Assembly (NCBI RefSeq): GCF_022045235.1
Contig: NW_027266265.1
Location: 18,724,001-18,788,000 of the forward strand
Origin: Haliotis cracherodii
Lineage: Eukaryota
Direction: 5' to 3'
Length of the DNA: 64,000 bases
Below, one piece after another: positions 2,936-58,119 of the stretch (position 1 is its first letter; every line of letters begins with the position of its first letter). The notes under the pieces were generated by a model. That model saw nothing but the letters and a program-made list of their open reading frames with translations, was not told the DNA's origin and did not search any database. The translations under genes and the position numbers were made by a program.

Positions 2936-5900
2936 AACACCTGGTGTCGTCACTGATTCTCAGCGATCCATTCAAATAATGTTCACAGCTATTTTGCCTT
3001 TTACGCCTAACGGAATCTGTTTCGTAGGAACATCGAGAGTGGTTATGCTCTTGCGTCGATGTTTTTCATTACATTGTTAAGATATATATTCACATGGCAA
3101 AATGGGACAAGTTTCTCTCTCCCCTAATTCTTCTTTACACAGTGACCAACTTCTTTGAGAGGTGGGTTTCACAGACGGTCTACCCCAGCGTTCTAACCTG
3201 CCAAATTGTCAAATTTAGGAGATAAACATACCGTGTTTTGTAATTTCAGGTAGTCAAACTGTTGATTAGACACCTCTTGTTTTAATGTAGACCCGAACGT
3301 TTTGTGGTTGGTGTAGATTTTACCTAATTGTATGTATTCTGAAATTGATTCCATCATATTTGACATGTTGTCCGAGTGCTTGAGTGTTGTGTAGGAGTGA
3401 GTGACAACAACATCTGATATTGTTACAGTATCAGAGTATACAATTCTAATGGATATCGACAGCCACTGTTGTTTGCATCGTGTATTCATACGCAATATGT
3501 TGTATGAAAAGGCATATCAATTTTGAGGTATCTCAAGCTCACTCGGGTCGCTCATATGTAGGTACGGCCACATCACGAAACTTCGATATTCTGCGAGAAT
3601 CACAGTCATTTGCTGTCACAGACAATCACTACAATTGTCAATGGACTTATGCTTATTGTACATGGTGTGTATGAGAAGTAGCTGCATAGACTTAAACATA
3701 CACACAGATAGGGACTTAAATACATTTTAGTTTCACATATATTCATCACAGCATACAAAAAGCATATTTAAGAGTTCAAGGAATCGGTTCATTTTTATAT
3801 ACATTTTGGTAGTATACTGAAATATATTGTTGTCGTATGTGGTTATAATATGGGCATACCATCTTCTATGGATTTTATATCACACAACTTTCATATCCGC
3901 AACTGTCTGTTGTTTCAATAGAAATTGTTTTAGAACATATGTACTTTACGGTTTTTTAATACAATGACAACTACATCAATTTGTTATTGAAGATGAATGA
4001 AAGGGGGTGTATGTGTTATTGTTAACGCCATAATCAGCAATGTTGTAGCCATACCTTGCAAGTTTAAATAATCGAGTCTGGACTCGGCGAACCATTGAAA
4101 GCAGATCAGACACGTCACGAAGTCACGCCATCTGGTCCATTTTCCAACATAAATAGCACACTGGGGACCAATTCCATTCAGGCATCGTCCTGAGTTTGAA
4201 TGTAAGGAAACATATATACGTATATGTTTGTGTACATAATTTAATTTCAAAGGACAGATAATTTGACACAGTGTCTATCGTGCAGTTAAAGGTTGGTTTA
4301 GTAGGAAGAAGGCAATGCCCTTTAATCAGATGCTTAATTCCTGGCATATTTCTACATGGGGCTAAACCGTTCTTGTCTTTATGATGAGACAGTTTCCGAC
4401 TAATGCAGTCATCTTCACCATGTTCCAAAGATAATGCAACGTATCTGTGTTTGATGTCAGCGTCACCTGCAAAGTCAAGGGCCGCTGGCTTATACATGTA
4501 TTCACACTCATGTCGACGCAACCTTTCTGTGCCTCCGTGAATAAAGTGGGTGACCGGTGTTGGCTTACAACGTGAAGTTTAAAGGGACACTATCTTAGTT
4601 GAGGTTTCCGTTTTTCTTTTCTCTGAATTGCATTTCATATGAACAACAACATTAAATATCACGTATAGTGCTCTCTATTAAGATGTGGTTATTGGCGCCA
4701 GAGGCGCTATCGTCGTGCCAATTGACAGTTTAGTGGTTAACTGTATCTGATCAATCAAATGTGTTTGTGTATTCAGTCAAGAAGTTGTTTGTTGTTTTAC
4801 ACCGCAGTCAGCGACATTCCTGCTGTATCGCTACGGCCTGTAAATATCGAGGTGGCTGGGGACGGCCAAACAGTGGGCAATGGCATGGTCAGCAAGTCAC
4901 GAAGGCTGACCACCGATCCTCATTTGAGTTGGCTTACGACAAGCATAGTACGGGGCATGCAATCCGACCTGGGATACCTACAGGAATAATGATTTCCCCA
5001 ATAACGACGAGACATTGCCATATTTCCGCAGGTCCTTAAGTAAGACTAGAACTAGAACTGGAAACCCGGCAAGAAAGTTAACTGACTATGAAAATCCAGT
5101 TTCCACCCTTTTGCGGAACTAGGCTCGAGTTTCTGGGACCGATCGTAGCGCCACCAATGGCTATTATGTCCCTTCTATGTCCCTCCTACTGACCGATCAG
5201 ATTCCACCTCTCATATCACTTGAAATTGCTTCAAACGAAATGGCGGCGCACAGTCAAGAATACCTGATCATAATCAACATCTGTATTGAAATATAACGGT
5301 TCTTACTTCACATCAAATCTCGTGAGGACCTGGATTGAAAACATGAAAAGATTTAGAAAATATCTGTTGACGTCGAGTTGGCGGAATACATGCTTTGCAA
5401 ATCAAGGAATCGACCGAAATCTGCACCGGATGTTAACCCCCTTGACCCGGGAAGATGAACGAAGTGGATCAAATATGAATTGTGCTCCACGACATATTGT
5501 CCTACAACAAAATCTGTCTGTAATCGGAGTCTAGCTAAAACAGATTTTCGTTGGAAGTTGCACCTTACATTTCTGCAGTGAATCTGTTATCTGCTGTAAC
5601 AAATTCGCAAGGAGTGGCGATTAACGTTATCTGTATATAAACAAACAAGTTAGGACGAATCTGTGTGATGTCTGGTGTTATATAAAGAAGTTTTGTTGCA
5701 GTTAATATATCACTATATATCACTATAACACTTTGCACGTGGAATTTAAATTTGAATTTGTGCTACGCCAATTACAAGTCCACCGGCCTGTCAGTGGGTT
5801 GTCATTTGGAGGGTGTTTAGTTTCAATCTGAGGCACCTCTCGCTAGGGAACATAGTCTCAAGTCATGAAAGGAGGCAAGTCCTACTCAGACAAACATTGT

Positions 5901-7149: not shown

Positions 7150-7370
7150 TGACCCGTGAAGCTCCGAGTTGGAATAGGCCTTGAGCAATCCATGTTTGTC
7201 ATTAGAGGCGACAATGGTTATCTTAATAGGCGACTAACAGGATCGGGTGATCGCTGACTTGGGTGATGCATGTCATTGTATCCCACTTGCATAGATCGAT
7301 GCTCTTGATGTCAATCAGACCGCTGTTATATAGCTGGATTATTGCTGAGTGCGACGTTAAAAAGGAAACA
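7150..7370 (+). mobile_element. Retroposon family A, diverged
   Basis: gacccgtgaagctcc head through gctgagtgcgacgttaaa tail. Confidence 0.8.
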
Positions 7371-7460: not shown

Positions 7461-7588
7461 CGTCATGACGAAGACCCGGGTTTGAATCCCGACATGAGTA
7501 CAATGTGTGAAGCCCATTTCTGGTGTCCCCCGCCGTGATATTGCTGGAATATTGCTAAATGCGGCGTAAACCCAAACTCACTCACTCA
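7461..7588 (+). mobile_element. tRNA-derived SINE family B, 5'-truncated
   Basis: B-box-like ggtttgaatccc, (ctca)n tail, TSD tcaaccac; related pieces at 1403-1485, 34625-34720, 43169-43255 and 45336-45467. Confidence 0.8.
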
Positions 7589-8526
7589 TATCAACCACAC
7601 ACTCTAGTTACGCACTCATTATTTCATCCAAAGTGGACCACAATCATGGGTTTGGGCTGTCCTTATGAAACCTAGCCGATTTATTGTTTCTATAACGTGA
7701 CCGCACATATACATATACGTACCGACCGACTCCTTTGACTGATACCAGGATTCCCTTTAAAGGAGACATTACGGTAGTGAAGATCCAGGCGACTTTATTT
7801 CATGGTCTTCTTTTCCTTTTAACATACAAACTCATTCCTATCTCCTGTATGTAATCATGAAATTATCATAATTAGGTTGGTTGTAAATAACATATAAAAC
7901 TCGAGATTAATTTAGCAGACTAACACCTGTTGTTCGGTCGCCGCAATGTAATGGGGCAATTGCGTGTGGAGTGTGTTCAGATAACGGCATGTTTACTTGT
8001 AACTTCGCGAAGCTCGCGGCCTTATTAGATACAAGCTGCACACAATTATACAACAATCACATTGTTCCTTAGAACTCAGATAAGATAGCTCTAGGCACGA
8101 TTTAACACGTCAAGTTGTGTTTGGTGCATCAGTTGACATAGCTAGAAATGACTGTCTTGTAAAGTCAAGCGTGTAGTCAGCTTAAATGACCATCATATTT
8201 CCGGATTCATGTGAAACAAGGGGGGTGACATACATGTAGATAAATTTACTGAATGAAACCTCCCCCAAAGGACGCTAACTGTTTGCAGCGTCTACCTATA
8301 GTTAACGTCGCATTAGTGTCACCAGGATAAGACAATATACATACACGTAGCACCAACACGGGTCGCAATTTGTTTCTATGTCATGGATGGTCTAGTGGTC
8401 TAGGGTTGTGTCCCTTTGACATGCCAGGATCTCATGATCAAACGATCAAATCCCAGATTGGCCCTGATAATGGCTTTTGGTTTGTCGGTACCATAACCGT
8501 CACTGTATATGGTTCAGGTCTAAGTT

Positions 8527-8748
8527 CCGTGAAGATCCGGGTTAGAATTAGTCTTCAGCAACCCATGCTTGTCTGAAGTGACTAACGGGATCGGGTGGTT
8601 AGAGTAGCTGGCTTGGTTGATGTATAGCTTCGTATCCCAATTGCGGAGATCGGTGCTTATGATGTCTATAACTGGATTATTTTCAGACCGTCGTCAGATA
8701 GCTGGAATATGGCTGAGTGCATTAAACAACAACAAAAAACAAACAAAA
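8527..8748 (+). mobile_element. Retroposon family A
   Basis: ccgtgaagatccgggttagaat head through (caa)n tail. Confidence 0.85.
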
Positions 8749-9644
8749 TTCCCGTCAACATTAAGCTACTCATCCCGTTAAACTGAAATGCGGCGTTAAA
8801 CCCAACTTACACCCTGACTCACTTCCTGTGACACGCAGGGCTTGGTGTATGGGGCTCTGTTGGTACTTACCTCCCTTTGAACTGGCCAGGTCTGATCCTT
8901 GTGAAAAACTGGCGATAAAATAGGCCAATGTTAACAGATTAGTGCGTTAACACTGTTAAAATGCTGCCCAACAATGACATTCCAGTTTGGGCAATTCCCA
9001 ATGTTCATTTGGCTCTTGCCTCGGAATCTGAGTGAAAAAATCAAGAAACAAACGATATTGCCCATATAACACCATACTCGTGCTGGTAGATTTCGCCACT
9101 TTGGGCTTTCTTTCCACACCGAGGTGACACTCCATGAGTACGCAGAAATACTGTTAAAGTGGGCCTTAAAGCAAACTAATTCGTTCATTATTGTCAAAAC
9201 TAAAGCTTCAAGCGAACAGTATACTGCCGCAAATATCCAGGTTGTTTGAACAGAGATAAACCCTAAAAACCAGTAGTCTATTCGCTTTAACAAAACTCAT
9301 ATCTACATTATCAGTTCAAGAAATATTAGGGCGACAGCCGAATATGCGCTAGAACAGTGTCAAGACGACAGTGACAATGGTCGCACAGTAATTATGTAAC
9401 CGGGGCACTATCTACAGGTCAGACGTGTCAACAATGTATGACATTACTGGATATGTCTCGTGACCATAAGTCAGGTCAGACACAGTCGGCGCGCCAGTAT
9501 ATTATGCCACTGACAAGGACAGTATAAATAATGACTGCTTTACTGCTATAACGAGTTCCTGATCGATCTATGATTATACATGTTGTTATGTAATGTAATG
9601 ATGGTCAGATGATCTTTGATTCACAGAGAGCGGCGCGATAGTAC

Positions 9645-10815
9645 TGAGAGTGACGTCAGATGTACGGAGAGTGACGTCAGATGTTCAGAGAGTGACCCAA
9701 GATGTACAGAGAGAGTCAGATGTACAGAGAGTAACGCCAGATGTACAGAGAGTGAGTCAGATGTACAGAGAGTGAGTCATGTTCAGAGAGTGACGTCAGA
9801 TGTACAGTGAGTCAGATGTACAGAGAGTGACGCCAAATGTACAGAGGGTGACGTCAGATGTACAGAGGGTGACGTCATATGTACAGAGTGACGTCAGATG
9901 TACAGAGAATGACGTCAGATGTACAGATAGTGACGTCAGATGTACAGAGAGTGAGTCAGATGTACAGAGAGTGACGTCAGATGTACAGAGGGTGACGTCA
10001 GATTTACAGAGTGACGTCAGGTGTACATAGAGTGAGTCAGATGTACAGAGGGTGACGTCAGATGTTCAGAGAGTGAGTCACATGTACAGAGATCTCGAGT
10101 GAGTCAGATGTACAGATGGTGACGTCAGATGTACAGAGTAAGTCAGATGTACAGAGTGAGTCAGATGTACAGAGTGACGTCAGATGTACAGAGTGACGTC
10201 AGGTGTACATAGAGTGAGTCAGATGTACAGAGAGTGACGCCATATGCACAGTGAGTCAGATGTACAGAGAGTGAGTCAGATGTACAAAGAATGACGTCAG
10301 ATATACAGAGTGAGTCAAATGTACAGAGTGACGTCGGATGTACAGAGAGTGAGTCAGACGTACAGAGCGTGAGTACAGATGTTGAGAGGGTGACCTCAGA
10401 TGTTCATAGAGTGACGTCAGATGTTCAGAGGGTGACACCAGATGTAGAGAGAGTGAGTCAGATGTACAGAGAGTGAGTCAGATGTACAAAGAATGACGTC
10501 AGATGTACAGAGAACGAGTCAGATGTTCAGAGAGTGACGTCAGATGTACAGAGGGTGACGTCAGATGTACAGAGGGTGACGTCAGATGTACAGAGGGTGA
10601 CGTCAGAAGCACAGAGAGTGAGTCAGATGTACAGAGAGTGAGTCAGATGTTCAGAGAGTGACGTCAGATGTACAGTGAGTCAGATGTACAGAGAGTGACG
10701 CCAGATGTACAGAGGGTGACGTCAGATGTACAGACTGACGTCAGATGTTCAGAGAGTGACGTCAGATGTACAGAGTGAGTCAGATGTACAGAGAGTGAGT
10801 CAGATGTACAGAGAT
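9645..10815. repeat. Minisatellite, ~17-21 bp units (gatgtacagagagTGACGTCA / TGAGTCA)
   Basis: Direct reading; about 55-60 units. Confidence 0.97.
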
Positions 10816-10816
10816 G

Positions 10817-10936
10817 CTCGATGATTGATGCTCATGGTGTCAGTCACTTGACTGTCTGGTCCAGACTGGATTATTTACAGATCGCCGTCATATAGCTGGA
10901 ATAGTGCTGAATGCGTCGTTAAACAACAATCAAACA
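10817..10936 (+). mobile_element. Retroposon family A, 3' half abutting the minisatellite
   Basis: gtctggtccagactggattatttacagatcgccgtcatatagctggaat...aaacaacaa. Confidence 0.8.
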
Positions 10937-13499: not shown

Positions 13500-13745
13500 G
13501 ACCCGTGAAGATCAGGGGTAGAATAGGTCTACAGCAACCCATGCCTGCCATAAAAGATGACTATGCTTGTGGTAGGAGTGGCGGTCTGGCTCGATGACTT
13601 GGTTGATGCATGTCATTGATCCCAATTACGTGGATCGATACTCATGTCTATCACTGGATTGTCTAGTACACACCTGTTCATTAACAGACCGCCGTCGTAC
13701 AGCTGGAATATTGCTGAGTGTGGCGTTAAACAACAAACAAACAAA
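13500..13745 (+). mobile_element. Short retroposon family A (structured head, no tRNA), full length
   Basis: Starts GACCCGTGAAGATC, ends (caaa)n; TSD tctca(c/t)tggtaca at 13487-13499 and 13746-13758. Confidence 0.9.
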
Positions 13746-21453: not shown

Positions 21454-24400
21454 CTGTAAAAAAACAAAAGATACCGTAAGTCCGAGGGAGCACACTCCAC
21501 CACAAGCACCCAGGGATAGATTGGTAGCTGTCTGCAAGCCTGAGGGCTAGAAGCAGGGCTTGTTGGAGTGTCCTTCTACATGACCACTACATATTTCTAT
21601 TGATGCATAAGGCAGGGCTAGACTTAAGGAATTTGATTTAACTTGCACCATGTGCATGTTGACATGAAAACAAGATTGCACCACAAGAAACAACATTGCA
21701 CCACAAGAAACAGGGTTGCACCACAAGAAACAGGGTTGCACCACAAGAAACAAGGTTGCACCACAAGAAACAAGGTTGCACCATGGTCCCATAAATGTAT
21801 CCCCCAAAATAAAATCTGGGATGTCTGACTTTGTCATCATTTATAGTACAGTTACTAGTTACAGTACTCAAGTGGCAATGTCATCTATGGCATAATGCAT
21901 AATTATCATTAGTAGGATAATCTAAATATCATGACATGATATGAAAGGCAACTTCAGGGATAGATGAGGCTACAGTACAGTACATGATCTCCAAGTACCC
22001 CCAGATTAATGACGTCAAATTACACATACCACAGGAATTAGTGTTGTGGTATGGTAAATAAAGCTTAGATGTAATGAGTGTTCAAAGATAGATTTTGTGG
22101 TTTAGTCAAGATACAAATTTTTCAATAATAGGTTGGACTTGTGTATGTTATATATAGCTAAATCAAGCCCTGCAAGGTTAATACATTTGCAAAAATCTTG
22201 AATGAATTTATAAGATCTGCTTTAGGAATAAACTTCACCGTTGAGTCTAAGACCAACTACATTGAGCAATATTTTTATCATCATTTTACCCTGTTGTGTC
22301 AAACCCTGTTGTGTCCAACTCAGTCTGGTCCCAGCAAACTCTCAAATTAACCTGGATGTGCTGAATTCTGGTTGTTTTTAACATAATTTATACTCCCAAG
22401 AGTCCAAATATAAGTAAAATTTACCCTGATAAATCAACTCAATTTCAAAAACAAACTGAGCTCAAGTTAGAATTTCTATTGAACATAATATCGTGAAACA
22501 TGAAAGACACGAAGCATAACATGCGTGATGTTCTCGCTTGCTGTTGTGTGAAGGCTCTGTCACACAGTAAGAAGGTCAAGTCAGGTGTGTCAAACTTCGG
22601 ATAAGACAATATTTCTCTGCTCCCCATCAGTTTGTGACAATGGAGTTCAACTGTATTCAATATGATGTGATAAATTACATTGTCAAAGGAATATCCTATG
22701 GTTAGTGTTATGTTCAAGGCTACAGACATGGAGAGTTTTTACAGTGTACACTTACTTTGAGAAGAACTCCTCTTCATCAATCACCTGCTCACCTGCCTCT
22801 TGTAGGGAGAATATGTAGGAGGATCTGTAGCACATGCAGAACTATAGAGGGAGCCACGACATACACGATATGTCTTACATCAATAGGTACATGGAAGGAC
22901 CAAACATCAAAATGTACCAGTTCCTCAAGGTTTGAATAGCTGCACACTGATGACTTACCACTTTTGTGAAACCGGGATTTGAACCCATGATCACAGGTTT
23001 CTGGCACAACCAAGGGATGCAACTCTGCACAGTCAATTGTGGAGCCTTAGTTGTGACCCTTCTCTACAGAGTGGAATGTGTGTGTCAAGGATATGTTCAC
23101 ATACAACTAAGGACTGACTTGTTTATCAAGTACAGGGTTGATAATGAAGTGTTGTAGTTCTGGCCGACCTGCACTTTACCCTCTCTAAGTGTGCCCACCT
23201 CTACAGCTGAACCATGAAGATCCAGGGTAGAATAGGTCTTCAGCAACACGTTCTTGCCGTAAAAGGCGACTAAGCTTGTTGTAAGAGGTGACTAACGGGA
23301 TCGGATGGTCAGGCTCGCTGATTTGGTTGATGCATGTCATTGCATCCCAATTGCGTGGATCGATGTTCATGATGACAATCACTGGATTGTCTGGTCCATA
23401 CTCGATTATTTACAGACTGCCGTCATATAGCTGGAATATTGCTGAGTGTGGCGGTAAACAATAACAACCAAACAAACAAAAGCCTCTACAGCTGGCTTCC
23501 ACTGATTCTTCCTGAAAAAAGATCATCTTGGCTCCACACATGTAGCTTCTATCACATCAGAGGATGTTTCCACTTTTGTTACAAGTAAAACAATTATTGA
23601 TATTTCCATTGGGCCTCTCATGTAAAAAGGTTATCCTCTATCACTGTCTTTGACATTTCGTTTGAGACTGAAGGCATGTAGGATCCAAACACATTACATT
23701 TGAAAATACACATGAACATTTCTGACACAATGCCTGAGGTAACAAAATATCAAATACCGTCTTCGACGTAATAAGCGCCCAGGATGCTCTCAAAATTAGA
23801 AATAGAGGGCTCTTATTAGAATATTATTTTGGTGAAAAAGTTGAAAGATAAATTTTGTTGTTTATGCTGACAGCCTGAAATGTTTATGTACGACAGATAT
23901 ATTTTTCTAGAATTTAATTGCCAATAATTAAGGGTGCATATGACACACGAGTGCGTATTGTACGTGAATAAATAAGGTCTTGTGAACATTGATCAATCGG
24001 AAGGTGTGCTAATTGGGATTGTTCACTAGCCAATATATTAGCAAATGTTGCCGTGGGCGCTTGTTAGAGCGGGGCGCTTAATACGTCGAATACGGTAAAC
24101 AGAGTTTTTACATTTGTCATCATTAACAAACTTGTATCTGTTTCAACAATGCTTACCTTTGATTGTTGAGTTTGGCATATTTTTCCCTGTCAGCATCGCT
24201 GATCTTAAGTAGGTCTTTGAGTGCCGGTGTGTGTGCCCTGACCAGCTGGTTGTCTATGTACACATCATATAGATGGGTCTTGCTCTCAAATATCTTCTCT
24301 GTAGTGCCTGCACAATTGTGAACTATTGTTATTAACTATTGCTATTAACTCAAATATACTGTTTCACAATGCATAGTTACCTTCAACAGACAGGGGTGGG

Positions 24401-27400
24401 TTTGCTTTATCTTACTATATCAGTTCAGAGAGAATAAACCACTCAGAGCACAGTTGTATCATACAATAAAACACTGCCCATCATTGTTTATTCTCCTTGC
24501 ACTGTTTTATTGAATGATAAACAATGACCAAACTTTGTTATTTCTTACATGAGATATCAATATTATTTACAACCACTTTGTAAAACTAACAAGCTTTTAA
24601 AGTAATTAAATACAATCTGATCTCGGCAATGTCAGACAAGTCCATTTTATGAAAAGGCGGGTTTCATTTACCAGTAAAAAGAGGAAAGGTGCTAAGTGGA
24701 TAATTTCCGGCCATTATTTGTACCTTTTCTCTCATCATAGCTTGCTTACTGTTGGATGCTACCATTCAGCCAATGTGTTTATCTAAGGTTAACAACTCGC
24801 TGCCCTCTCAAAAATAGCACTATTCAACTGATGAAGTCATCAAGTTGTGAGCATTTGTTAAAATCTCCAGAAATTAGGTCATTATAGAAGAGTTTTATCG
24901 TGAAATATAAGATAGCAATGAACAGTGATGAACATCGATGTAGCTGGGCAACACAGATAAACCTGATGAACCTGAAACCTGGCCAAATGATCGCATCCAA
25001 AAGTGGGAGAAAAGGTACAGGTTATCAATGCGAGATTGCGAAAATATGCGGGAAATACACGCCTCTGCATAAAATGGACTTGTCCAACTTTGATGAGGCC
25101 AGATTCTATTGAGGGAGTCATCATTATTTAAATACAAGTAAATAGTTTTAAAGCTTTACATTTCATCACCGTTCCCAAAGAGGCTGTACATGATGTTGGT
25201 ATCTCATATAAGAAATAAACGACTCGTGGTCATTGTTTATCTTACAACAAATCACTACCGGGGGAATAAAACACTTAGGGCTGTGCCCCTCATGGTTTAT
25301 TACTCCTGCAGTGTTTTATTGTACGATAAAAAACTACCACGAGTCGTTTATTTCTTAAATAAAGCAACTTGTTCTTCATTGTTCTTTGTGATTTATCATG
25401 TTGGTATCTTATATAGTACAATTTACACACTCTATACACATTAAACCATCACACACTAATGCTAAATACTCAAGTTACATGTTACAGTGCATACTAGCAG
25501 AGTGTTTCTCTGCTTGTCTGGACAATACACTGTGTCACTGTGTGACTTATACTCGGGGAACAGTGGTACATACTTACATGCTATATATGTCATTTCATTC
25601 TCCAAAGCCTCGATGTCAGCTACATTGACATAGAAGTGGGGCCGGATGTCATGCCGCGTAAGGCCTTGTATATTGTGGTTACCAAGGCAACAAGCACAGT
25701 ACACTGAAACAGTTCATTTGATATCTAAGACATAACCCAAATCAACATTATACAAGTAATTACTTTTGACAAGATCAACTATGCCAAAACCAGGACCTGT
25801 GGAACTGGCCCCCGAGGAGTTCTGACTGGACAGAGGTCGCAGACTGCTGAATGGGTTGGGTCCTCGGGTCCTTCTTTTTGCATAATTTACTTCATCAAGA
25901 GTAATTATTTGTTTTATTATACTGAAATTCACTTTAAAGTTTAGGAATCCTTTAAACCATCTTCTGTTTCATTACAGTAACTTGGCGTCTGTTACTAGAA
26001 TTTCATTGTTCACAGCTATCTTGTTTTCTAGCAGACAAGTCAATACTCATCGCGTGACAGGTCAATACTGATCATGAGACGAGTCAATATTCGAGGTCAG
26101 TGTCAGTCACATGGTTTGGGGGGTCAACATTTAAATCTATGGTTTTGTTACGTGGTACGGATTAACCAATAGCATTGCAAAATTCGTAATAGAAGCATAA
26201 CAGCATAAAATGTATTTCTTCACCTGTTCAGTGTTATATTTCATAAGACAGAACATAACCTGTCACAGGACATGACATCATAACTACATATGTTATGTGT
26301 GTGTGTGACATAATGAGTTATGATTAATTCAGTGACCTGTGTCAGAGTAGGTTCCCAGCACTCTTATGGTCGTAAGGGACATCGTGACTGTACTTGGTGG
26401 TCAGGTATGGTAATTTGGAAGGTTATCATACCGCGACGGGTGGCACACTGCTCATGTCAACTACTGATTTGTCCTGGAATTACTTACAAGAATAATTCTG
26501 ACTCTGGCTTTAAACAACAAACGGAAATACAAAATTATTGCACGTGCCCTGTGGTTCCAACATAAGATCCCTGGAGCTAATGCTGGCCACAATAGTGTTG
26601 GTTGGTTTGTTGTTTACCGCCACACTCAGCAATATTCCAGCTATATGATGGCGGTCTGTAAATAATCAAGTCTGGACATGACAATCCAGTGATTGATATC
26701 ATGAGCATCGATCCACACAATTGGGATCAATGACATGCATCAACCAAGTCAGTGAGTCTGACCACCCGATCCCGTTAGTTGCCGCTTACAACAAGCATAG
26801 TCGACATTTACAGTATGCATGGGTTGCTGAAGACCTATTCCACCCCGGATCTTCACGGGGCCCACAATAGTGTACTACAATGGCATTGCGTACATAAAAT
26901 GGTGATGCTCAGTGTTCAGGGTCTAGTGCTCTGTTTTGTTTGGTCTGGTTTCAATTATTTACAAGCTCTCACCTCTGTAACACACGACCCCGATGGGAGG
27001 AGGAGAGAAGAAGAGGATGCGCTTCTGGAGTAGGGCGAACTTCCACAGTGTGTAGATTTGTTCCCCGAAGAACTTGATGAACTGGGAGAAACAGCCAGCT
27101 GGGTGGGTGATCTGGAAGGGAGGAGACAGAGACTGAGACTATTTTTCAAGTCACTGAGAATCACTGAAAGGAATAATGTTTCCCTTACCTTTTAGCTGAG
27201 AATTAAAATTGGTTCAAGGGAGGCAACTCATTTCAAAATACAAATTTCAATTCTCAGACTCAAGAAAATGTATATGGGGCAAGGTGGCCATTAGAAAGAC
27301 AATGCTGAGAGAGACTGACAGATACAGATGGTAAGATGTGCAAAGTTGAGTCCCGAAGGTGACAGAAACCTATTAACAAAACTTCCAATGATTATTATGA

Positions 27401-30400
27401 TTATGATTCTCCTGGAGTTATTAGTCATAAATGTCGAAGACCTTCATCACGACCTCCAATATTAGCTCATACACTCTGATATAACAAAAATGCAGCTCAA
27501 ATTGACTTAAAACCCAAATGACTCACTCATGTGTGGAGTGCCAAATTCTGCTACTGTAACAGAATCTACAATGGAACCAGTAGTGGATACAATCCTGGAC
27601 ATACTGGGCACTGGATCACCAGTATTGTTTGTATATTTGTTTATCATTGCACTCAGCAATATTCCTGCTATATGATGGCGGTCTGTAAATAATCGAGTAT
27701 GGACCAGACAATCCAGTGATTGACATCATGAACATTGATCTACGCAATTGGGATTCGATTCAACCATGTCAGCGAGTCTGACCACCTGATGCCGTTAGTC
27801 TCTTATGACAAGCATAGTCGCCTCTTACAACAAGCATGGGTTGCTGAAGACCTCTACCCAGATCTTCATGGGTCAGATCAGCAGTAGCTGACACTTGTCT
27901 TCAGCTTGGGGCGGTCACAATGTGGGATCCTGCTGAAGGCCTGGGACAAGTTTAAAAAAAGAAAGATCCCAACAATAAGAATGTTGTGAGTCTTTGTCAA
28001 ACCATGGGAATAATGACTACCATAGTGCAAGGATCACAATGTGAAACATAAGCTATCAATCACTGGTTGATCTTGTGAGGATATCATTATTCCAAGGCTC
28101 ATCATAGAGATGCGATACCCCCTGCCTCATGCAGCCTCACCTTCATCTCTGGCAGCAGCTCTTTGCTGGGTGTGGAAGGTGTGGACGCAGGGCTGGGAAT
28201 CTTCAGCGCCTCCGCTGACCCACCTATCGGTAACACCCCCTTCTTGTCATCAAAGAATGCTATCAACTGTGTGTACACCCCGGGCACCTCCAGCTGATGT
28301 CTGAAAACATGCAGACCTCTTACTGTCTGATCTCAACAAAATATACTAGTATATGTTTCAGTCATGATTGGAAAACATCAAAAATGTAACGGTTAAAAAG
28401 TTATAGATGCAACACAATTGTCCATGGCAACAAATCAATAATAAATATCAATTTAGTTAAGATCGATGCCATATTACACTATCAATAGACAATGAAACTA
28501 CACACTGTCAATGTCAATCATTAATTAAACTAGTACCTATTCAGTTTGATAAAGTACACCTTGCTTGAAGCCAAAGATGGGTATCTATTCCAAAATGTTA
28601 AAAAACTGGCGTCATACAACTATTGGAGGTACCTCTCAAGAAATCTTTGCAACATGAGTAAACGTGCCTTCGGTAATTACCACTGGTCATGATACCACTG
28701 GTCATGATACCAATGCAAACCAAGAAAAACTCAAGAAACGATATAGAGCAAAATCTAGTTTGCCTTCAATTGAGAATTAGAAGTCCACAACTCACAATTT
28801 CATTTGAGATCATATGCATCATTTTCCATGCCTCAGTTGTAGAAGAATGACACAATATTTTCACATTCAAATCAAAGACCACTGTTTATCGGTTATTATT
28901 TACCTGACTTGGGTCTCCAGGAACTGCACGTGTTTGTAGAGGGAGGATGTCAACCTATTGACCACTGTTTATCGGTTATTATTTACCTGACTTGGGTCTC
29001 CAGGAACTGCATGTGTTTGTAGAGGGAGGTATAGGATGTAGACAGGATCCCCACTGACTTCATCCGTGCCCCTCGCTCGATCTCACTCTCCACCTTCATG
29101 TTCTCAAAACAAGCCAGGCCATACAGGTTCTCCTTCCGGAAGTAACTGTACAACAAAACACTGACTGCAGTTCTGGTGCCCGTGTGATGCAAGTGAAACT
29201 GAGTAACACTAGCAAGCAAACTGGAGAAAAATGCATGATTTCGTGCCAAATTGACATACAGTCGAACCCTGTGTCTTGAACTACTGGGAACCATAGAAAC
29301 AGTTATTCTTATCTGGGATTTGACACATCCGGTCTTCTCTTCTGACCCAGCTATCAGACATCAAGCAAACATTCTACATTTACATTTACATCATATATAT
29401 GGAAAGAATGACAAGCAGAAGCAATTGTCATATCTACATTTATGCATCTGTATGCATTTTATTCATATCACAGGATTATCATGATATCATATGACAATAA
29501 CAATAGTAAATAAATACACACATTTATCAACGACTTATCAGGGTAAGTTTTAATTGGTATTAACACCTGGGGCTATAAATTGAATTTGTCACAACCAGGA
29601 TCTTGACACATCCAAGTTTGAGACAACAGGGTTCGCCAGCGTTTGAAATTACAGCTCACGTAAGAATTACCTTTCATCTGACCAATCAAAGCGTCGCTTA
29701 GCAGATCATGAAAGTGGCAGTCGAAATGTGTATTCTAATCATGCAACCTCAAAAACGTTAACACGGGGCATTCCAAACAACTGATTCAAAATTACCGTCT
29801 GTCACTCGCTTAACCATATATTTGATATTCCAGAATGTCCCTTTGTTCAGTTTTCAAAATTTTAATCGAGTACTGTGTCAACATATTTTTCAAACTTAGT
29901 CTCAAGTGGAATCATTAGTTTTGTGTGTGTTTTAAGTCTTTTATTAACAAGTTTATGTCATTTTGTTCAAATTTAAGGCTGTTCAAGCTATATTGGTGAT
30001 CTTCAAGGACATTAAAAATCAAGGCTTTTCAAGAATGACCTTATAATTCAAGGCCTTTTTAGAGACTGTAGGAACTTTGCAGGATACTGATGCAAGGGGA
30101 TGGGACATATTACTGTACATTACCATCAGGGGTATGGGTCCTCAATGAGATTGGGTGTGTGTAGTGTTGCAAAAATACTTGTTGTAGTTGTGAAAATAGT
30201 CTTAAATGGTTTATGGTATCACTTATTAACATGATTAAGGATACGATATTCAGTTGTGGTTTTCATCTCTTAATAATTTGAGAAAGAAAGTAAGCATGAC
30301 AAAAGCTTACAGTTTGCAGACTTGGTATGTCATGTCTTTAATACACAAGAAATGAGTAAAACAACATGATACAATGCCTGAGAAAAAACTTGCACTTTAG

Positions 30401-33400: not shown

Positions 33401-36400
33401 CACACGACAAACTTAAGGAAGATCTTTATTCCTTGATCTATCACTCAGGTTCCATGAACCATATACTGAGAAGTTGGAACAGTCTTAAGTTCAGTGTTCT
33501 CTTTCCTCAGAGCAACACCGTAAACCATATGTTATTACTTTATAACTCAAAGGAATCAGCTACTGAGTTTACATCTCAACTTTGCTGTTAAGTTAACCAT
33601 AAAATATGGTATATGTAGGTCATTTTGTATTAACATTTTGTTAAAATTTGGGCTGATTGGATGTAGCTTGCAATCATGGTGTCTATCCATTAATTGGGTT
33701 TGCATATTAAAACTTAACTTAACATTAAAACTTAAATTACACTTACATTTACATTGTAAATAAGCAGCAAACTTTGACACATTCCTGAGTTAGCCCCTGG
33801 TCAGTTGTAGGACACTTTCTTACATCTGATAACAGTGGCCTTCTTTAAACCACTGTTGCAATGGTAACATGTTCTTCATCATCACAATGAAACAAATTGT
33901 ATGCCAGCAACTGCAGCAGAAATGATTGTTGATTACATGAACCACCCTCAGCTATTAAACACCTATAATTCCCTGCAGGAAGGCAACAGACACATGTAGG
34001 CTGCAGTCTGACATCAATCAATAGTCCCTCTGTCAGCAGCAACACACCACACACACAGAACAACACTCTCGTATTGATCTGCCAATAGACATGCTGTTTG
34101 ACGGTGTTCCCTTCTGCCAGTCTCAATAAGTATGTCCATGTGATTTATGTACAGTAACTGGTATCAATTGTCATGACTAGACTTGTTAAATACACAGTTC
34201 TACACAACAGCTGACAAGCATAGAAGATGGGTTAGAAGTCAGTCATAAACATCAGCCATGCTGATATTACAGTTTCATTTTACATACCACAGTAAATATG
34301 CTATAATGCAATGAATAATTTAAGTTATTGGCAAATTACTTGCATGAAAACAAAACATAATATTTTTTACATTTGTCATCATATTTTTCTGACCCTCTGT
34401 GAATGTTCATTCTTTCAGGCTCTCCCATAAGGCAAACGAAAATGTCCAGGTAGATTATCACATAATGGACACACTACCCCAATCATACACTTTTCTTCCA
34501 CTACATTTGTTCATAATTCTCACAATGATTGTTTCAGAATCATCTCACTGCACCTGTCTGTGATTTTGCTGCCTTGATTTTTTTCCAATAAATCCATATA
34601 AGTTTGGACTGTGTTGACATGGTGTGAGTGTGAGTATGGTTATACACTGCTTTCAGCAATACATGTATTCCAGCAATACCACGGCGCGTGGCACCAGAAG
34701 TGGGCTTCACACACTGTCATGTTGTGAATAACGAGAATAGCATCCTCTCCCAAACAAGTTAAGATTGGAACACAAACTTACATAAAGACAAGTTAAGATT
34801 GGAACACAAACTTACATAAAGTCAAGTTAAGATTGGAACACAAACTTACATAAAGACAAGTTAAGATTGGAACACAAACTTACATAAAGTCAAGTTAAGA
34901 TTGGAACACAAACTTACATAAAGTCAAGTTAAGATTGGAACACAAACTTACATAAAGACAAGTTAAGATTGGAACACAAACTTACATAAAGACAAGTTAA
35001 GATTGGAACACAAACTTACATAAAGTCAAGTTAAGATTGGAACACAAACTTACATAAAGTCAAGTTAAGATTGGAACACAAACTTACATAAAGTCAAGTT
35101 AAGATTGGAACACAAACTTACATAAAGACAAGTTAAGATTGGAACACAAACTTACATAAAGACAAGTTAAGATTGGAACACAAACTTACATAAAGACAAG
35201 TTAAGATTGGAACACAAACTTACATCAAGTCAAGTTAAGATTGGAACACAAATTTACATCAAGTCAAGTTAAGATTGGAACACAAACTTACATAAAGACA
35301 AGTTAAGATTGGAACACAAACTTACATAAAGACAAGTTAAGATTGGAACACAAACTTACATAAAGTCGAGTTAAGATAGGAAATTAAACAAGTATGGAAT
35401 TTGACTAATTATCATATATCATTCTCAATCAATACTGGTATGTTGTTTGTTGTTTAACGCCAGAATCAACAATATTCCAGCTATATGACAGCAGTCTGTA
35501 ATTAATCAAGTCTGAACCAGACAATCCAGTGATTGACATCTTGACCAACGATCCATGCAATTGGGATATGATGACATACATCAACCAAGTCAGCAAGTCT
35601 GACTACCCCCATTTGTTGCCTCTTACGACAAGCATAGTCACCTCTAAGGGAAAGCATGTGTTGTTTAACACCTATGCTAAGCCAGGTCTTCACACTGAAT
35701 GGAAATAATGCAATTACACACGCTTCATCTGCTGATAAATACTGCCTGTCTGTATGTGGGTGATGTTCCCTGACGTCACATAGCCACATCAATGTTACAA
35801 TGACATGACAACCTTGCACACAGCTACATTCTCATCAACAAGGAGTCCTATACATATATTGTAGTCCTATATATAGATTGTTATATCATATATACTTTGC
35901 CATTGTTGGAATAAGAAGTATCAAATGTTTTTCATTAAGTCAGTAAAAAACAGAAAAAAATTATGTTAGGTTTGAAACTTGAAACCTAAAGAAGCCGTGG
36001 CAGTCAACAATGGTGATCAGGAAAGTGATATCCTCAGAGATAGTATGATCTAACACAATGAACCTATATCCTGATGAGATGGGGGTGAGGTAGCCTAGTA
36101 GTTAAAGCATTCGCTTGTCATGCCGAAGACCCGGGTTCTATTCCCCACATGGGTACCTATGATTGTAGGTTCGAATCCTGGTTTGCCCCAATTATGTTTC
36201 TAGGTTTGTCAGCACCATACCCATGCTCATGGGTTTCGCCGAAGTGGTAAACGTCTGAGACCTACATCACTTCGGGCTTTCCTCCCACATTAATCTGACA
36301 TGCTGTGATATAACCATAATACTGTTAAAAGCGGCGTTTAACCCAACTCACTCACTGAATCTTGGGTGTATATTCACTTGTACATTCTGTTGTTTTTCTT

Positions 36401-54390: not shown

Positions 54391-54650
54391 TTGGTTTGTT
54401 GTTTAACGCCGCACTCAGCAATATTCCAGCTATATGCCGGCGGTCTGTAAATAATCGAGTCTGGACCAGACAATCCAGTGGTTGACATCATGAACATCGA
54501 TCCACGCAATTGGGATACGATGACATGCATCGACCAAGTCAGCGAGTCTGACCACCCGATCCCCTTAGCCGCCTCTTACGACAAGATAGCCGCCTTTTTC
54601 GGCAAGCATGGGTTGTTGGAGACCTATTCTACCCGGGATCTTCACGGTCC
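54391..54650 (-). mobile_element. Retroposon family A, low-divergence copy
   Basis: Homologous over its full length with CpGs retained. Confidence 0.9.
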
Positions 54651-56574: not shown

Positions 56575-56790
56575 TTGTTTATACTTTAACGCCGCACTCA
56601 GCAATATTCCAGCTATATGCCGGCGGTCTGTAAATAATCCATCATGAAAAGACAATCCAGTGATTGACATCCTGAGAATAGATAGGCAATTAAGATACGA
56701 TGACATGCATCGAATAAGTCAGCGAGTCACCCGATCCCGTTAGTCGCCTCTTACGACAAGCACGAGAATGGGTGTCTGAAGACCACGAAG
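56575..56790 (-). mobile_element. Retroposon family A, diverged
   Basis: Shared tail and gtcgtaagaggcgactaacggg motif. Confidence 0.8.
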
Positions 56791-58119
56791 GTTGCTGCCA
56801 TATGACACGTACGGTGTTAACAATAAGAAAATTAACATATAAATAACCCCTAACACCTCAGATACATCAATGGACTTAGAGAAAAATGTCTGACAGGGCA
56901 ACATTATGATATTACAACAATCTGAGACGTGTGCATTAACCATTACTAACGTGTAGAAAACAACATTTTTACATTCTAGTTTTGATCGTGCTTAATCGTG
57001 ATTTAAAAAGTATTGGTATTTCTACAGCGGCGGATGCATTGTTACAGCCCTTAATGTAAAAATGGCTCTTAATAATATATATATATATTTACTTTAAGGG
57101 TTGAAGTGATAGATAATATTTATTTTACATTAAGGGTTATCACTAAGAAATAATACTTATCGAAAACTTAATGAAACTTCGCAGATTTATTTGATCGTTA
57201 CTTTTCTAGATGTACAAATGACTGATCACTTTTGGATTCCCTCTCTACAACGACCTGCTGGTTGTTAGATGCAGGATTCATAAAATGGTTTATGGCCCCT
57301 AACCCTTTCAACCGATTTTTATCAAACCTACTGTTTTACAAAGGTTATTTTTCGATACTCTGCAAGGTAACTTCGTGACGATCCTAATACCGTAACGACA
57401 GAAAGGAGGACTCAAACCAAGCAGATCAGACTAAGTTGTAGATGGTGGTGGGTTGTTAGAATGGTCCATTAACAGAGTTTTGGGCATGAAATAGTGGACA
57501 TTTTGTTGCAGTATTACAGATATGACAGTTAAGCATACACCAGAATCATTTGCTATTACAAACGACAGGAATGTCAATGCAATGATGTTTGTTTAAAAAA
57601 ACGGTAGGTTTCCCAAGTACAGTGCCGAGTCAAATATAGCCACTTAAAGTTTATAGTTTTCGGATATAAAGTCTATACCTTTCCTATAGCAGGTTAGCAT
57701 ATCCTGAAGTAAGACCATTGTTGATTGAAAACAGCGAAAAAGAACATTAGGCATACGGCCTGTAGAGTATTTTATGTCAGTTAGGAACCGATCAGTCGAT
57801 ATTCTTTGGGAGCTGACATAAGCTCACCACGGAACTTCGTACAAGGTGAGCTGTAAATGCTATCTTTCGAAATATGTTATGAATAAATCGTATTGGATTG
57901 TGAAAAGATTTCGCATGACGGATGACGCACGCCGCACAAAGACTGATTAACATAATTGCATATAATCAAAGTTGGAGAATATGTGTTCTTACAGCATTGG
58001 CGTAAAACAAGTACTTTTCTGTATTCATATTGATAATAGGGTCTTGCGATGGCAGTAGTGTATTTAACTTCAGAATATTTGGAAAAAGAACATTCTTTGC
58101 CTTAGATGGCTATTACATA

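Follow-up and report, generated by a model that had tools for sequence, protein, structure and literature searches.

The 64,000-nt window analysed here (Haliotis cracherodii, GCF_022045235.1, contig NW_027266265.1, positions 18,724,001-18,788,000 of the forward strand) contains a repeat family of about 260 bp, a short interspersed element (SINE) represented, among others, by a copy at position 23210. The head of this SINE, about 75 nt long, is predicted to be a conserved RNA module with two pseudoknots in series, which is also carried by I/Nimb-type long interspersed elements (LINEs) and by viral contigs. The fold is much more certain than any function. In window coordinates, the copy at 23210 consists of the following parts:

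23198..23209, + strand: 5' target site duplication (TSD) of 12 bp, whose last G is also G1 of the element
23209..23482, + strand: whole SINE copy of the LP ("LINE promoter") type, decayed, with head, body, LINE-like tail and (CAAA/CCAA)n
23211..23214, + strand: S1 5' strand of pseudoknot 1 (CCCG in the family, mutated here), followed by a one-nt loop, U23215
23216..23222, + strand: S2 5' strand, 7-bp stem
23223..23226, + strand: S1 3' strand (CGGG in the family, mutated here)
23228..23234, + strand: near-invariant YAGAAUA loop of pseudoknot 1
23235..23241, + strand: S2 3' strand
23242..23250, + strand: P3 5' strand and P3 loop, the latter forming the predicted pseudoknot 2 with 23296-23299
23251..23272, + strand: degenerate duplicate of the P3 3' strand and P4 hairpin, seen in 32 of the 42 heads counted
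23273..23277, + strand: P3 3' strand and conserved U linker
23278..23295, + strand: P4 hairpin GUCG-UAAGAGG-CGAC and YAA, invariant in the family, with both CpGs decayed here
23296..23299, + strand: predicted 3' strand of pseudoknot 2
23300..23416, + strand: SINE body with weak A/B-box-like words
23417..23482, + strand: 3' tail with a stem-loop, homologous to the tails of I/Nimb-type LINEs, and terminal repeat
23483..23494, + strand: 3' TSD

This copy is old: its S1 is broken, and its last hairpin has changes at both CpGs. In the family, pseudoknot 1 is of the H type, with S1 of 4-5 bp, one U, S2 of 7 bp and the loop YAGAAUA. Permutation tests on 19 motifs from 17 loci showed that S2, directly 3' of YAGAAUA, forms 121 of 133 pairs (against a mean of 99 and at most 111 under permutation), and that P3, which comes after S2, forms 51 of 57 (permutation mean 33). 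The pairing of the S1 5' strand with the first letters of the S2 loop gave a p of 1e-4, and of 0.003 in the viral copies alone. Pseudoknot 2, formed between the P3 loop and the strand 3' of P4 and YAA, appears to be the less well supported part of the fold, with a p of 0.01 (0.002 when two 5'-truncated loci were added, 0.024 in the viral copies alone).

The preliminary description of this DNA had proposed a structured, pseudoknotted RNA. A covarying pseudoknotted fold is indeed predicted, and its GAAGATC/GGTCTTC stem is S2, but the rest of its pairing scheme was wrong, since permutation gave a p of 0.85 for the pairing of CCCGT with ACGGG (its P1) and of 0.21 for the pseudoknot between the loop G-run and AACCC. 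On a MAFFT alignment of 13 sequences, not fitted to the structure, the pairs of that scheme were formed in 55.8% of the cells, with a double change at one of eight pairs. In the same alignment S1, S2, P3 and P4 were paired in 93.1% of 232 cells, with double changes at 11 of 18 pairs; this value was reached by none of 500 shuffles, and slid controls gave at most 47.5%. Covariation was seen in S1, S2 and P3. The 12 retroelement rows alone were 90.1% paired. Because these comparisons were made between families, the CpG decay of copies is not their driver. In addition, a model built from the retroelements alone scored the full viral copies at 34-69 bits, against 28 bits or less for chance matches to the core word, and four viral scores rose by 13-16 bits with the right pairs compared with a wrongly paired model.

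The GTCG-TAAGAGG-CGAC hairpin, which had been described as single or tandem, was counted once in 10 heads and twice in 32. No Rfam model matched the module at the gathering threshold, at E<=1 or at E<=5, hammerhead, twister, pistol, hatchet and hairpin ribozymes included, in agreement with the earlier opinion that it is not of the HDV, hammerhead, twister or pistol kind. As a guess, UAGAA and UAAGA could form a double T-loop. Two diverged modules occur in tandem in a metagenome contig (L034:1370-1515).

The family and the copies listed in the preliminary description were borne out by BLAST, which returned 22 pieces in the window, self included; at 56575 the head is without its 5' part, and two further copies, at 35442 and 36458, had been missed. 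The other delimited copies are:

7150..7361, + strand: old copy, without detectable TSD
8524..8750, + strand: old copy with a single hairpin, without detectable TSD
13500..13745, + strand: copy with a 13-bp TSD (1 mismatch), starting at G1
26598..26860, - strand: copy with a 12-bp TSD
27625..27874, - strand: copy with an 11-bp TSD (1 mismatch)
35442..35692, - strand: copy missed earlier, without detectable TSD
54391..54648, - strand: well-preserved copy, without detectable TSD
56575..56793, - strand: copy without the 5' part of the head, without detectable TSD

TSDs of 11-13 bp, announced as 12-13 bp in at least three copies, were found at four of the nine window copies examined (13500, 23210, 26599 and 27625) and not at those at 7150, 8527, 35442, 54391 and 56575. 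The 3' tail is a stem-loop followed by a terminal repeat, (CAAA/CCAA)n, and is identical to the tails of I/Nimb-type LINEs at 30 of 43 and 40 of 54 positions. Both the tail and the TSDs agree with the earlier view of a retroposon moved by target-primed reverse transcription. The absence of a tRNA head was likewise upheld, as neither Rfam nor ARAGORN matched a tRNA in the SINE. An A-box-like word at element position 98 (1 mismatch) and a B-box-like word at 149 are both weak and lie in the body, 3' of the head; from what is known of type 2 promoters, words placed behind the head could not set the start at G1. A truncated tRNA-headed SINE was therefore rejected, since the TSDs end at G1, no tRNA was matched and the body holds only these weak words.

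In the genome searched (1.18 Gb; 7559 SINE candidates), 60 stretches of 10 kb sampled at round coordinates contained 147 copies or fragments, of which 113 extend to the 3' end, and 41 of these begin in the first 20 nt. By extrapolation there are roughly 80,000 full-length copies genome-wide. About ten short hits of the sample belong to a tRNA-headed SINE with the common tail. A SINE with a tRNA head, in which the A and B boxes are clear, has the same 3' tail and ends in (ACTC)n; it lies at 7504 (+) of the window, with two minus-strand matches, and at L295, L298 and L319. The window also contains a short tandem repeat array at 10640-10820, directly 5' of a 5'-truncated SINE copy, and a tRNA-Asn gene at 40695-40768 (+).

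The start of the SINE is sharp. In a survey of 80 full-length copies, a TSD of at least 10 bp was present in 36 and ended exactly before G1 in 27 of them; in six others the TSD overlaps the first letters and three have 1-4 extra letters, none of them G. A start at the common G of GACCCGT is compatible with 33 of the 36, in line with the fixed start claimed earlier. TSD length peaks at 12-13 bp, the same as for Nimb-2_DR (PMC4245944). Two unrelated SINE families start exactly 7 nt before S2 (27/36 and 9/17 TSD-bounded copies), both with G at +1, and none of their five junctions with extra letters shows an untemplated G. The second of these families, that of L031, has T6 within the head and so is not a Pol III transcript. 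Three miRNA-seq runs gave few reads, mostly antisense and of about 30 nt (9, 107 and 14 on the SINE; 0, 97 and 0 on the LINE head), and were uninformative on 5' ends. Antisense small RNAs of about 30 nt with fixed starts, resembling Piwi-interacting RNAs (piRNAs), were observed at L025:1670-1700 (SINE body) and L188:783-812 (LINE module).

A metagenome scan revealed at least 120 stretches with the module, 113 of them from one other SINE family and seven from others. In L090 the module lies about 440 nt 5' of an open reading frame (ORF), ORF1, of the CCHC type. This ORF1 was used to fetch 30 LINE loci (3167 candidates in genome G000, 150 scored), all of which have the module about 550-600 nt before ORF1 (29 by pattern, L182 by eye). 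Another 30 loci were fetched from the 549 matches to the LINE-type module pattern in G000, at least one of which (L360) is also in the first set. The fetched LINEs are about 6.2 kb long; ORF2 has the APE-RT-RNase H arrangement, and a Pfam search of ORF1 gave no match. The CCHC ORF1, this ORF2, the TSDs of 10-15 bp and the common tail suggest that an I/Nimb-group LINE is the likely partner type of the SINE. Within the I group, we infer Nimb rather than another clade. The genome searches did not reveal the exact partner LINE, which would have a (CAAA)n tail. The same module in the leaders of these LINEs supports the earlier idea that the head came from a LINE 5' untranslated region (UTR).

The ORF1-selected LINEs start 57 nt upstream of the module, at a fold predicted from its sequence to be a ribozyme of the hepatitis delta virus (HDV) type, in 29 of 30 cases, and the other one is truncated inside the fold. 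In the module-selected set the whole upstream fold was present in 29 of 30, and one lacks its first letters. The 57-nt fold has G+1, a P1 of 7 bp, P3/L3 with TCCTCGT, P1.1 CC/GG and a CTAA linker, a P1-P2-P3-L3-P1.1-J4/2 pattern beside the TSD, and it matches RF02682 weakly (27.5-29 bits, gathering threshold 44). TSDs end within 1 nt of G+1 in 15 of 20 elements examined. No LINE starts at the module in either set (0/30 and 0/30), which argues against efficient self-cleavage there. Among 11 LINEs, identity was 98% for the ribozyme-like fold, 92% for the module, 78% for the mid-UTR, and 52% and 81% for the amino acids of ORF1 and ORF2, a gradient that may be due to selection or head swapping. 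In the available text of PMC5786205, the ribozyme-headed clades are R1, R2, R4 and RTE, as well as Ingi and LOA, with Pr77/L1TcRz, and Nimb/I is not among them.

One 57-nt HDV-like fold is at L188:720-776. Young full-length LINEs form dense nested clusters in G000, at C2:20.9-21.75 Mb (about 66 of the heads listed, in 0.85 Mb), C23:35.4-35.9 Mb and C6:4.2-4.7 Mb, which are possibly piRNA clusters. In L053 and L098 a short element carries the module together with a (GAT)n tail, which differs from the Nimb-type tails and indicates that the head has been combined with different tails. A strict pattern scan of genome_contigs found nothing, and of the eight hits of the genome_contigs scan, four look like eukaryotic retroelement DNA (L233, L235, L236, L238) and four like chance. 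A scaffold of a bacterial gill-symbiont assembly contains, by host contamination or insertion, an intact I/Nimb-type LINE of two ORFs that carries the module (L495/L238, G001:C4); the HDV-like fold is not visible upstream of it, and its start is not fixed, since a TSD was looked for and not found.

Scans of viral_contigs showed the full fold in eight viral contigs (L240, L241, L242, L243, L244, L245, L255 and L257). L241 and L244 are near-identical to each other and encode a Peptidase_A21 capsid; L242 has RdRP_3 and a nodavirus-type capsid, L243 has RdRP_3 and an S-domain coat, L245 has RdRP_3 and L257 has RdRP_4. The ORF of L240 gave no Pfam match, and L255 is a DNA virus contig of 212 kb. 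The first copy of each of the seven small contigs begins 6-124 nt past the last stop codon, and a copy stops 17-122 nt short of the contig end; in L240 and L243 the copies are in tandem. Among the viral copies there is no conservation of the +1 position. Strict pattern scans of viral_contigs found nothing, and looser ones gave mostly chance matches, largely within coding regions, and added only L255 and L257 as true copies. Variants with an altered P4 stem did not pass in the viral scans, and the other hits, which fail the structure, were treated as chance. Another short conserved RNA element, s2m, is found in unrelated RNA viruses and animal genomes. The module resembles s2m in this distribution; s2m, however, is a stem-loop of other sequence and not a retroposon head.

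LP-SINEs are known from Haliotis, Ostrea, Saccostrea and Littorina (Matetovici et al. 2016, PMC4758252). Their head of about 70 bp, a non-tRNA head as in the present family, is common to the LINE 5' UTRs of Nimb-17_LMi, I-3_DR and RTE-9_CPB, and was proposed there, without a test, as a promoter. The family of the window shares with them the homologous head, the TSDs, the 3' tandem repeat and the length of about 255 bp, that of Hdi_LP (PMC4758252), and it matches the published LP-SINE type; we infer identity with Hdi_LP itself. Compared by eye, the scallop "Nimb-17 homology" block in that paper has the words AGAAT and TCGTAAGAGGCGACTAA, and a 7-bp stem of other sequence. The preliminary description was right that the head is common across invertebrates. 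The family type, with its conserved head, is already in print (PMC4758252). The available text of that paper offers the promoter proposal, with Pr77 only as an analogy, and has no RNA structure, viral copies or upstream ribozyme; LP-SINEs are unmentioned in the available text of PMC11481361. In the literature searched (Repbase, Dfam, subscription papers and bioRxiv supplements being outside reach), there was no description of the module structure, of the viral copies or of an HDV-like fold ahead of the module on I/Nimb-type LINEs, and no exoribonuclease-resistant RNA (xrRNA) in retrotransposons turned up.

Tentatively, and at somewhat less than an even chance, we propose that the module is an xrRNA-like roadblock to 5'-to-3' exoribonucleases, which would trim read-through RNA to the fixed 5' end of the SINE. 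SINE RNA would come from host Pol II read-through, Xrn1/Xrn2 would trim it to the base of pseudoknot 1, leaving 1-2 unpaired nt, and the trimmed RNA would be copied by the I/Nimb ORF2 protein (ORF2p) bound to the stem-loop of the tail. The 5' end of the LINEs would be made by the HDV-like ribozyme upstream, with the module as an inner barrier, and in the viruses the module would leave a protected 3'-UTR fragment. It is known that 5'-OH ends, as on ribozyme-cut LINE RNA, are not attacked by Xrn1, and that xrRNAs usually sit in viral 3' UTRs close to the stop codon, at times in tandem. The three settings (SINE, LINE and virus) need one function, and an exonuclease block would fit all of them. 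In addition, the HDV-like fold kept upstream in LINEs is allowed by an exonuclease block that depends on a 5' phosphate, and not by an efficient 5'-edge cleaver. Viral 3' UTRs are also given as the place of xrRNAs in PMC12397905 and PMC10520033, and a stable 5' fold raises the efficiency of a retrotransposon template (PMC11331408). The module shares with flavivirus class 1/2, class 3 and coremin (xrRNA-C) xrRNAs a compact pseudoknotted form, a location in viral 3' UTRs near the stop, occasional tandem copies and portability (PMC12397905, PMC10520033, PMC10321173). It differs from them in topology and sequence and has no Rfam hit, and its resistance is here a prediction. The first-hairpin loop YGAD/YGNNAD of coremin xrRNA-C at the 5' edge (PMC10520033) is not found in the module, whose P4 loop UAAGAGG lies about 50 nt behind the SINE start.

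Several points weigh against the exonuclease block. Frameshift-type H pseudoknots do not stall Xrn1 (PMC10321173), the xrRNA ring through which the 5' end threads does not seem evident in the topology of the present fold, and no Rfam model of xrRNA classes 1-3 matched the module. No LINE copy of the two sets of 30 loci is trimmed to the module, although some might be expected, and in L255 the module is intergenic, at 2979-3053, near a NAD-dependent DNA ligase gene. With regard to the fold, the shuffle tests ignore relatedness, and the structure was chosen on the same sequences as tested; L241, L242 and L153 form pseudoknot 2 weakly or not at all; P4 never covaries, and about 25 nt are invariant, which fits a catalytic core or a protein site equally; and, folded without pseudoknots, the SINE head does not outdo its shuffles (z -0.16).

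As an observation apart, the 3' tail of the SINE and the LINEs (a hairpin, then GACGTTAAAC; window 23440-23460, and L033 as an example of the L031-family tail) resembles the coremin xrRNA spacer quoted in PMC10520033. It departs from the loop rule and lacks the second hairpin, and the likeness may be chance.

An undescribed self-cleaving ribozyme that cuts just 5' of G1, its LINE and viral copies being slow, conditional or kept for another use, is unlikely in our judgement. The SINE ends are as sharp as the HDV-defined LINE ends (27/36 against 9/15 exact), the +1 position is G in both SINE families, and the double pseudoknot is compact, with many invariant junction nucleotides. The pistol ribozyme has a pseudoknot with a 7-nt A-rich loop. 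YAGAAUA resembles this loop, but the order of stems differs, and Rfam searches at E up to 1-5 gave no match to pistol. The module also differs from HDV-like ribozymes, because its pseudoknots are serial and not nested and it does not show the P1/P1.1/L3/catalytic C pattern; the similar 57-nt fold of the LINEs, to which the RF02682 matches are confined, is separate from it and absent from the SINE. An efficient 5'-edge cleaver would strip that fold from LINE copies and cut viral genomes, while the LINEs keep it and never start at the module, and the viral contigs continue through the module from the last ORF. Such a cleaver also sits poorly with a module whose identity among LINEs is 92%, against 52% for their ORF1, with the variable +1 of the viral copies and with the lack of an Rfam ribozyme match. 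Ribozymes do occur in UTRs of linear RNA viruses, but the published ones precede ORFs and the module follows the last one (PMC13725137). The self-cleaving reading suggested in the preliminary description is weakened by the separate HDV-like fold that marks the LINE 5' end and by the lack, in both sets of 30 loci, of a LINE starting at the module.

It is also improbable that the module binds a translation factor or the ribosome, like a cap-independent translation element or an internal ribosome entry site, so that uncapped LINE and viral RNA would be translated and SINE RNA brought to the ribosomes that make ORF2p. Alu RNA is brought to ribosomes by SRP9/14. The position in a 5' UTR behind a fold generating 5'-OH ends, the copies in 3' UTRs of tombus-like genomes and a sequence invariance that suits a conserved host partner speak for such binding. 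On its own it leaves the sharp start of the SINE, 7 nt before S2, unexplained; moreover, the SINEs have no ORF, and tandem viral copies are more typical of xrRNAs.

Still less probable is an internal Pol II promoter acting as DNA with its start at G1, the other function suggested in the preliminary description. It is the published LP-SINE proposal (PMC4758252, without a test there), the +1 is a purine, and Pr77 is a single element that is both promoter and RNA fold. A DNA promoter does not need compensatory pair changes, however, and it leaves the module in the 3' UTRs of RNA viruses, which have no DNA stage, unexplained. LINE copies start 57 nt upstream of the module, and the extra-G signature of a cap is absent from the five junctions with extra letters. 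Finally, a binding site for LINE ORF1p/ORF2p in ribonucleoprotein assembly or 5' joining, with the SINE start where the protein stops or joins, would account for the repeated capture of the module by non-autonomous elements with different tails (PMC4758252) but is very unlikely, because the module occurs in viruses without LINE protein and on Nimb-type and (GAT)n tails alike, and LINE cDNA extends past it.

Whatever its action, we consider it slightly more probable than the contrary that the module is a new functional RNA class, either the first retrotransposon-borne xrRNA or a new self-cleaving ribozyme, which travels as one unit between LINEs, SINEs, several RNA virus groups and a large DNA virus, and through which the SINE exists without a Pol III promoter or a transcription start of its own. 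The HDV-like fold on I/Nimb-type LINEs lengthens the list of ribozyme-headed clades in PMC5786205. As it is common to the leaders of retrotransposons and the 3' UTRs of viruses, the fold of the module would connect two fields and add a new class of xrRNA (or ribozyme), and the module would offer a compact 5'-protecting unit for RNA-templated gene insertion. For the LP-SINEs, how an element without a small-RNA promoter has a defined 5' end is a question open since 2016, which the fold of the module would answer.

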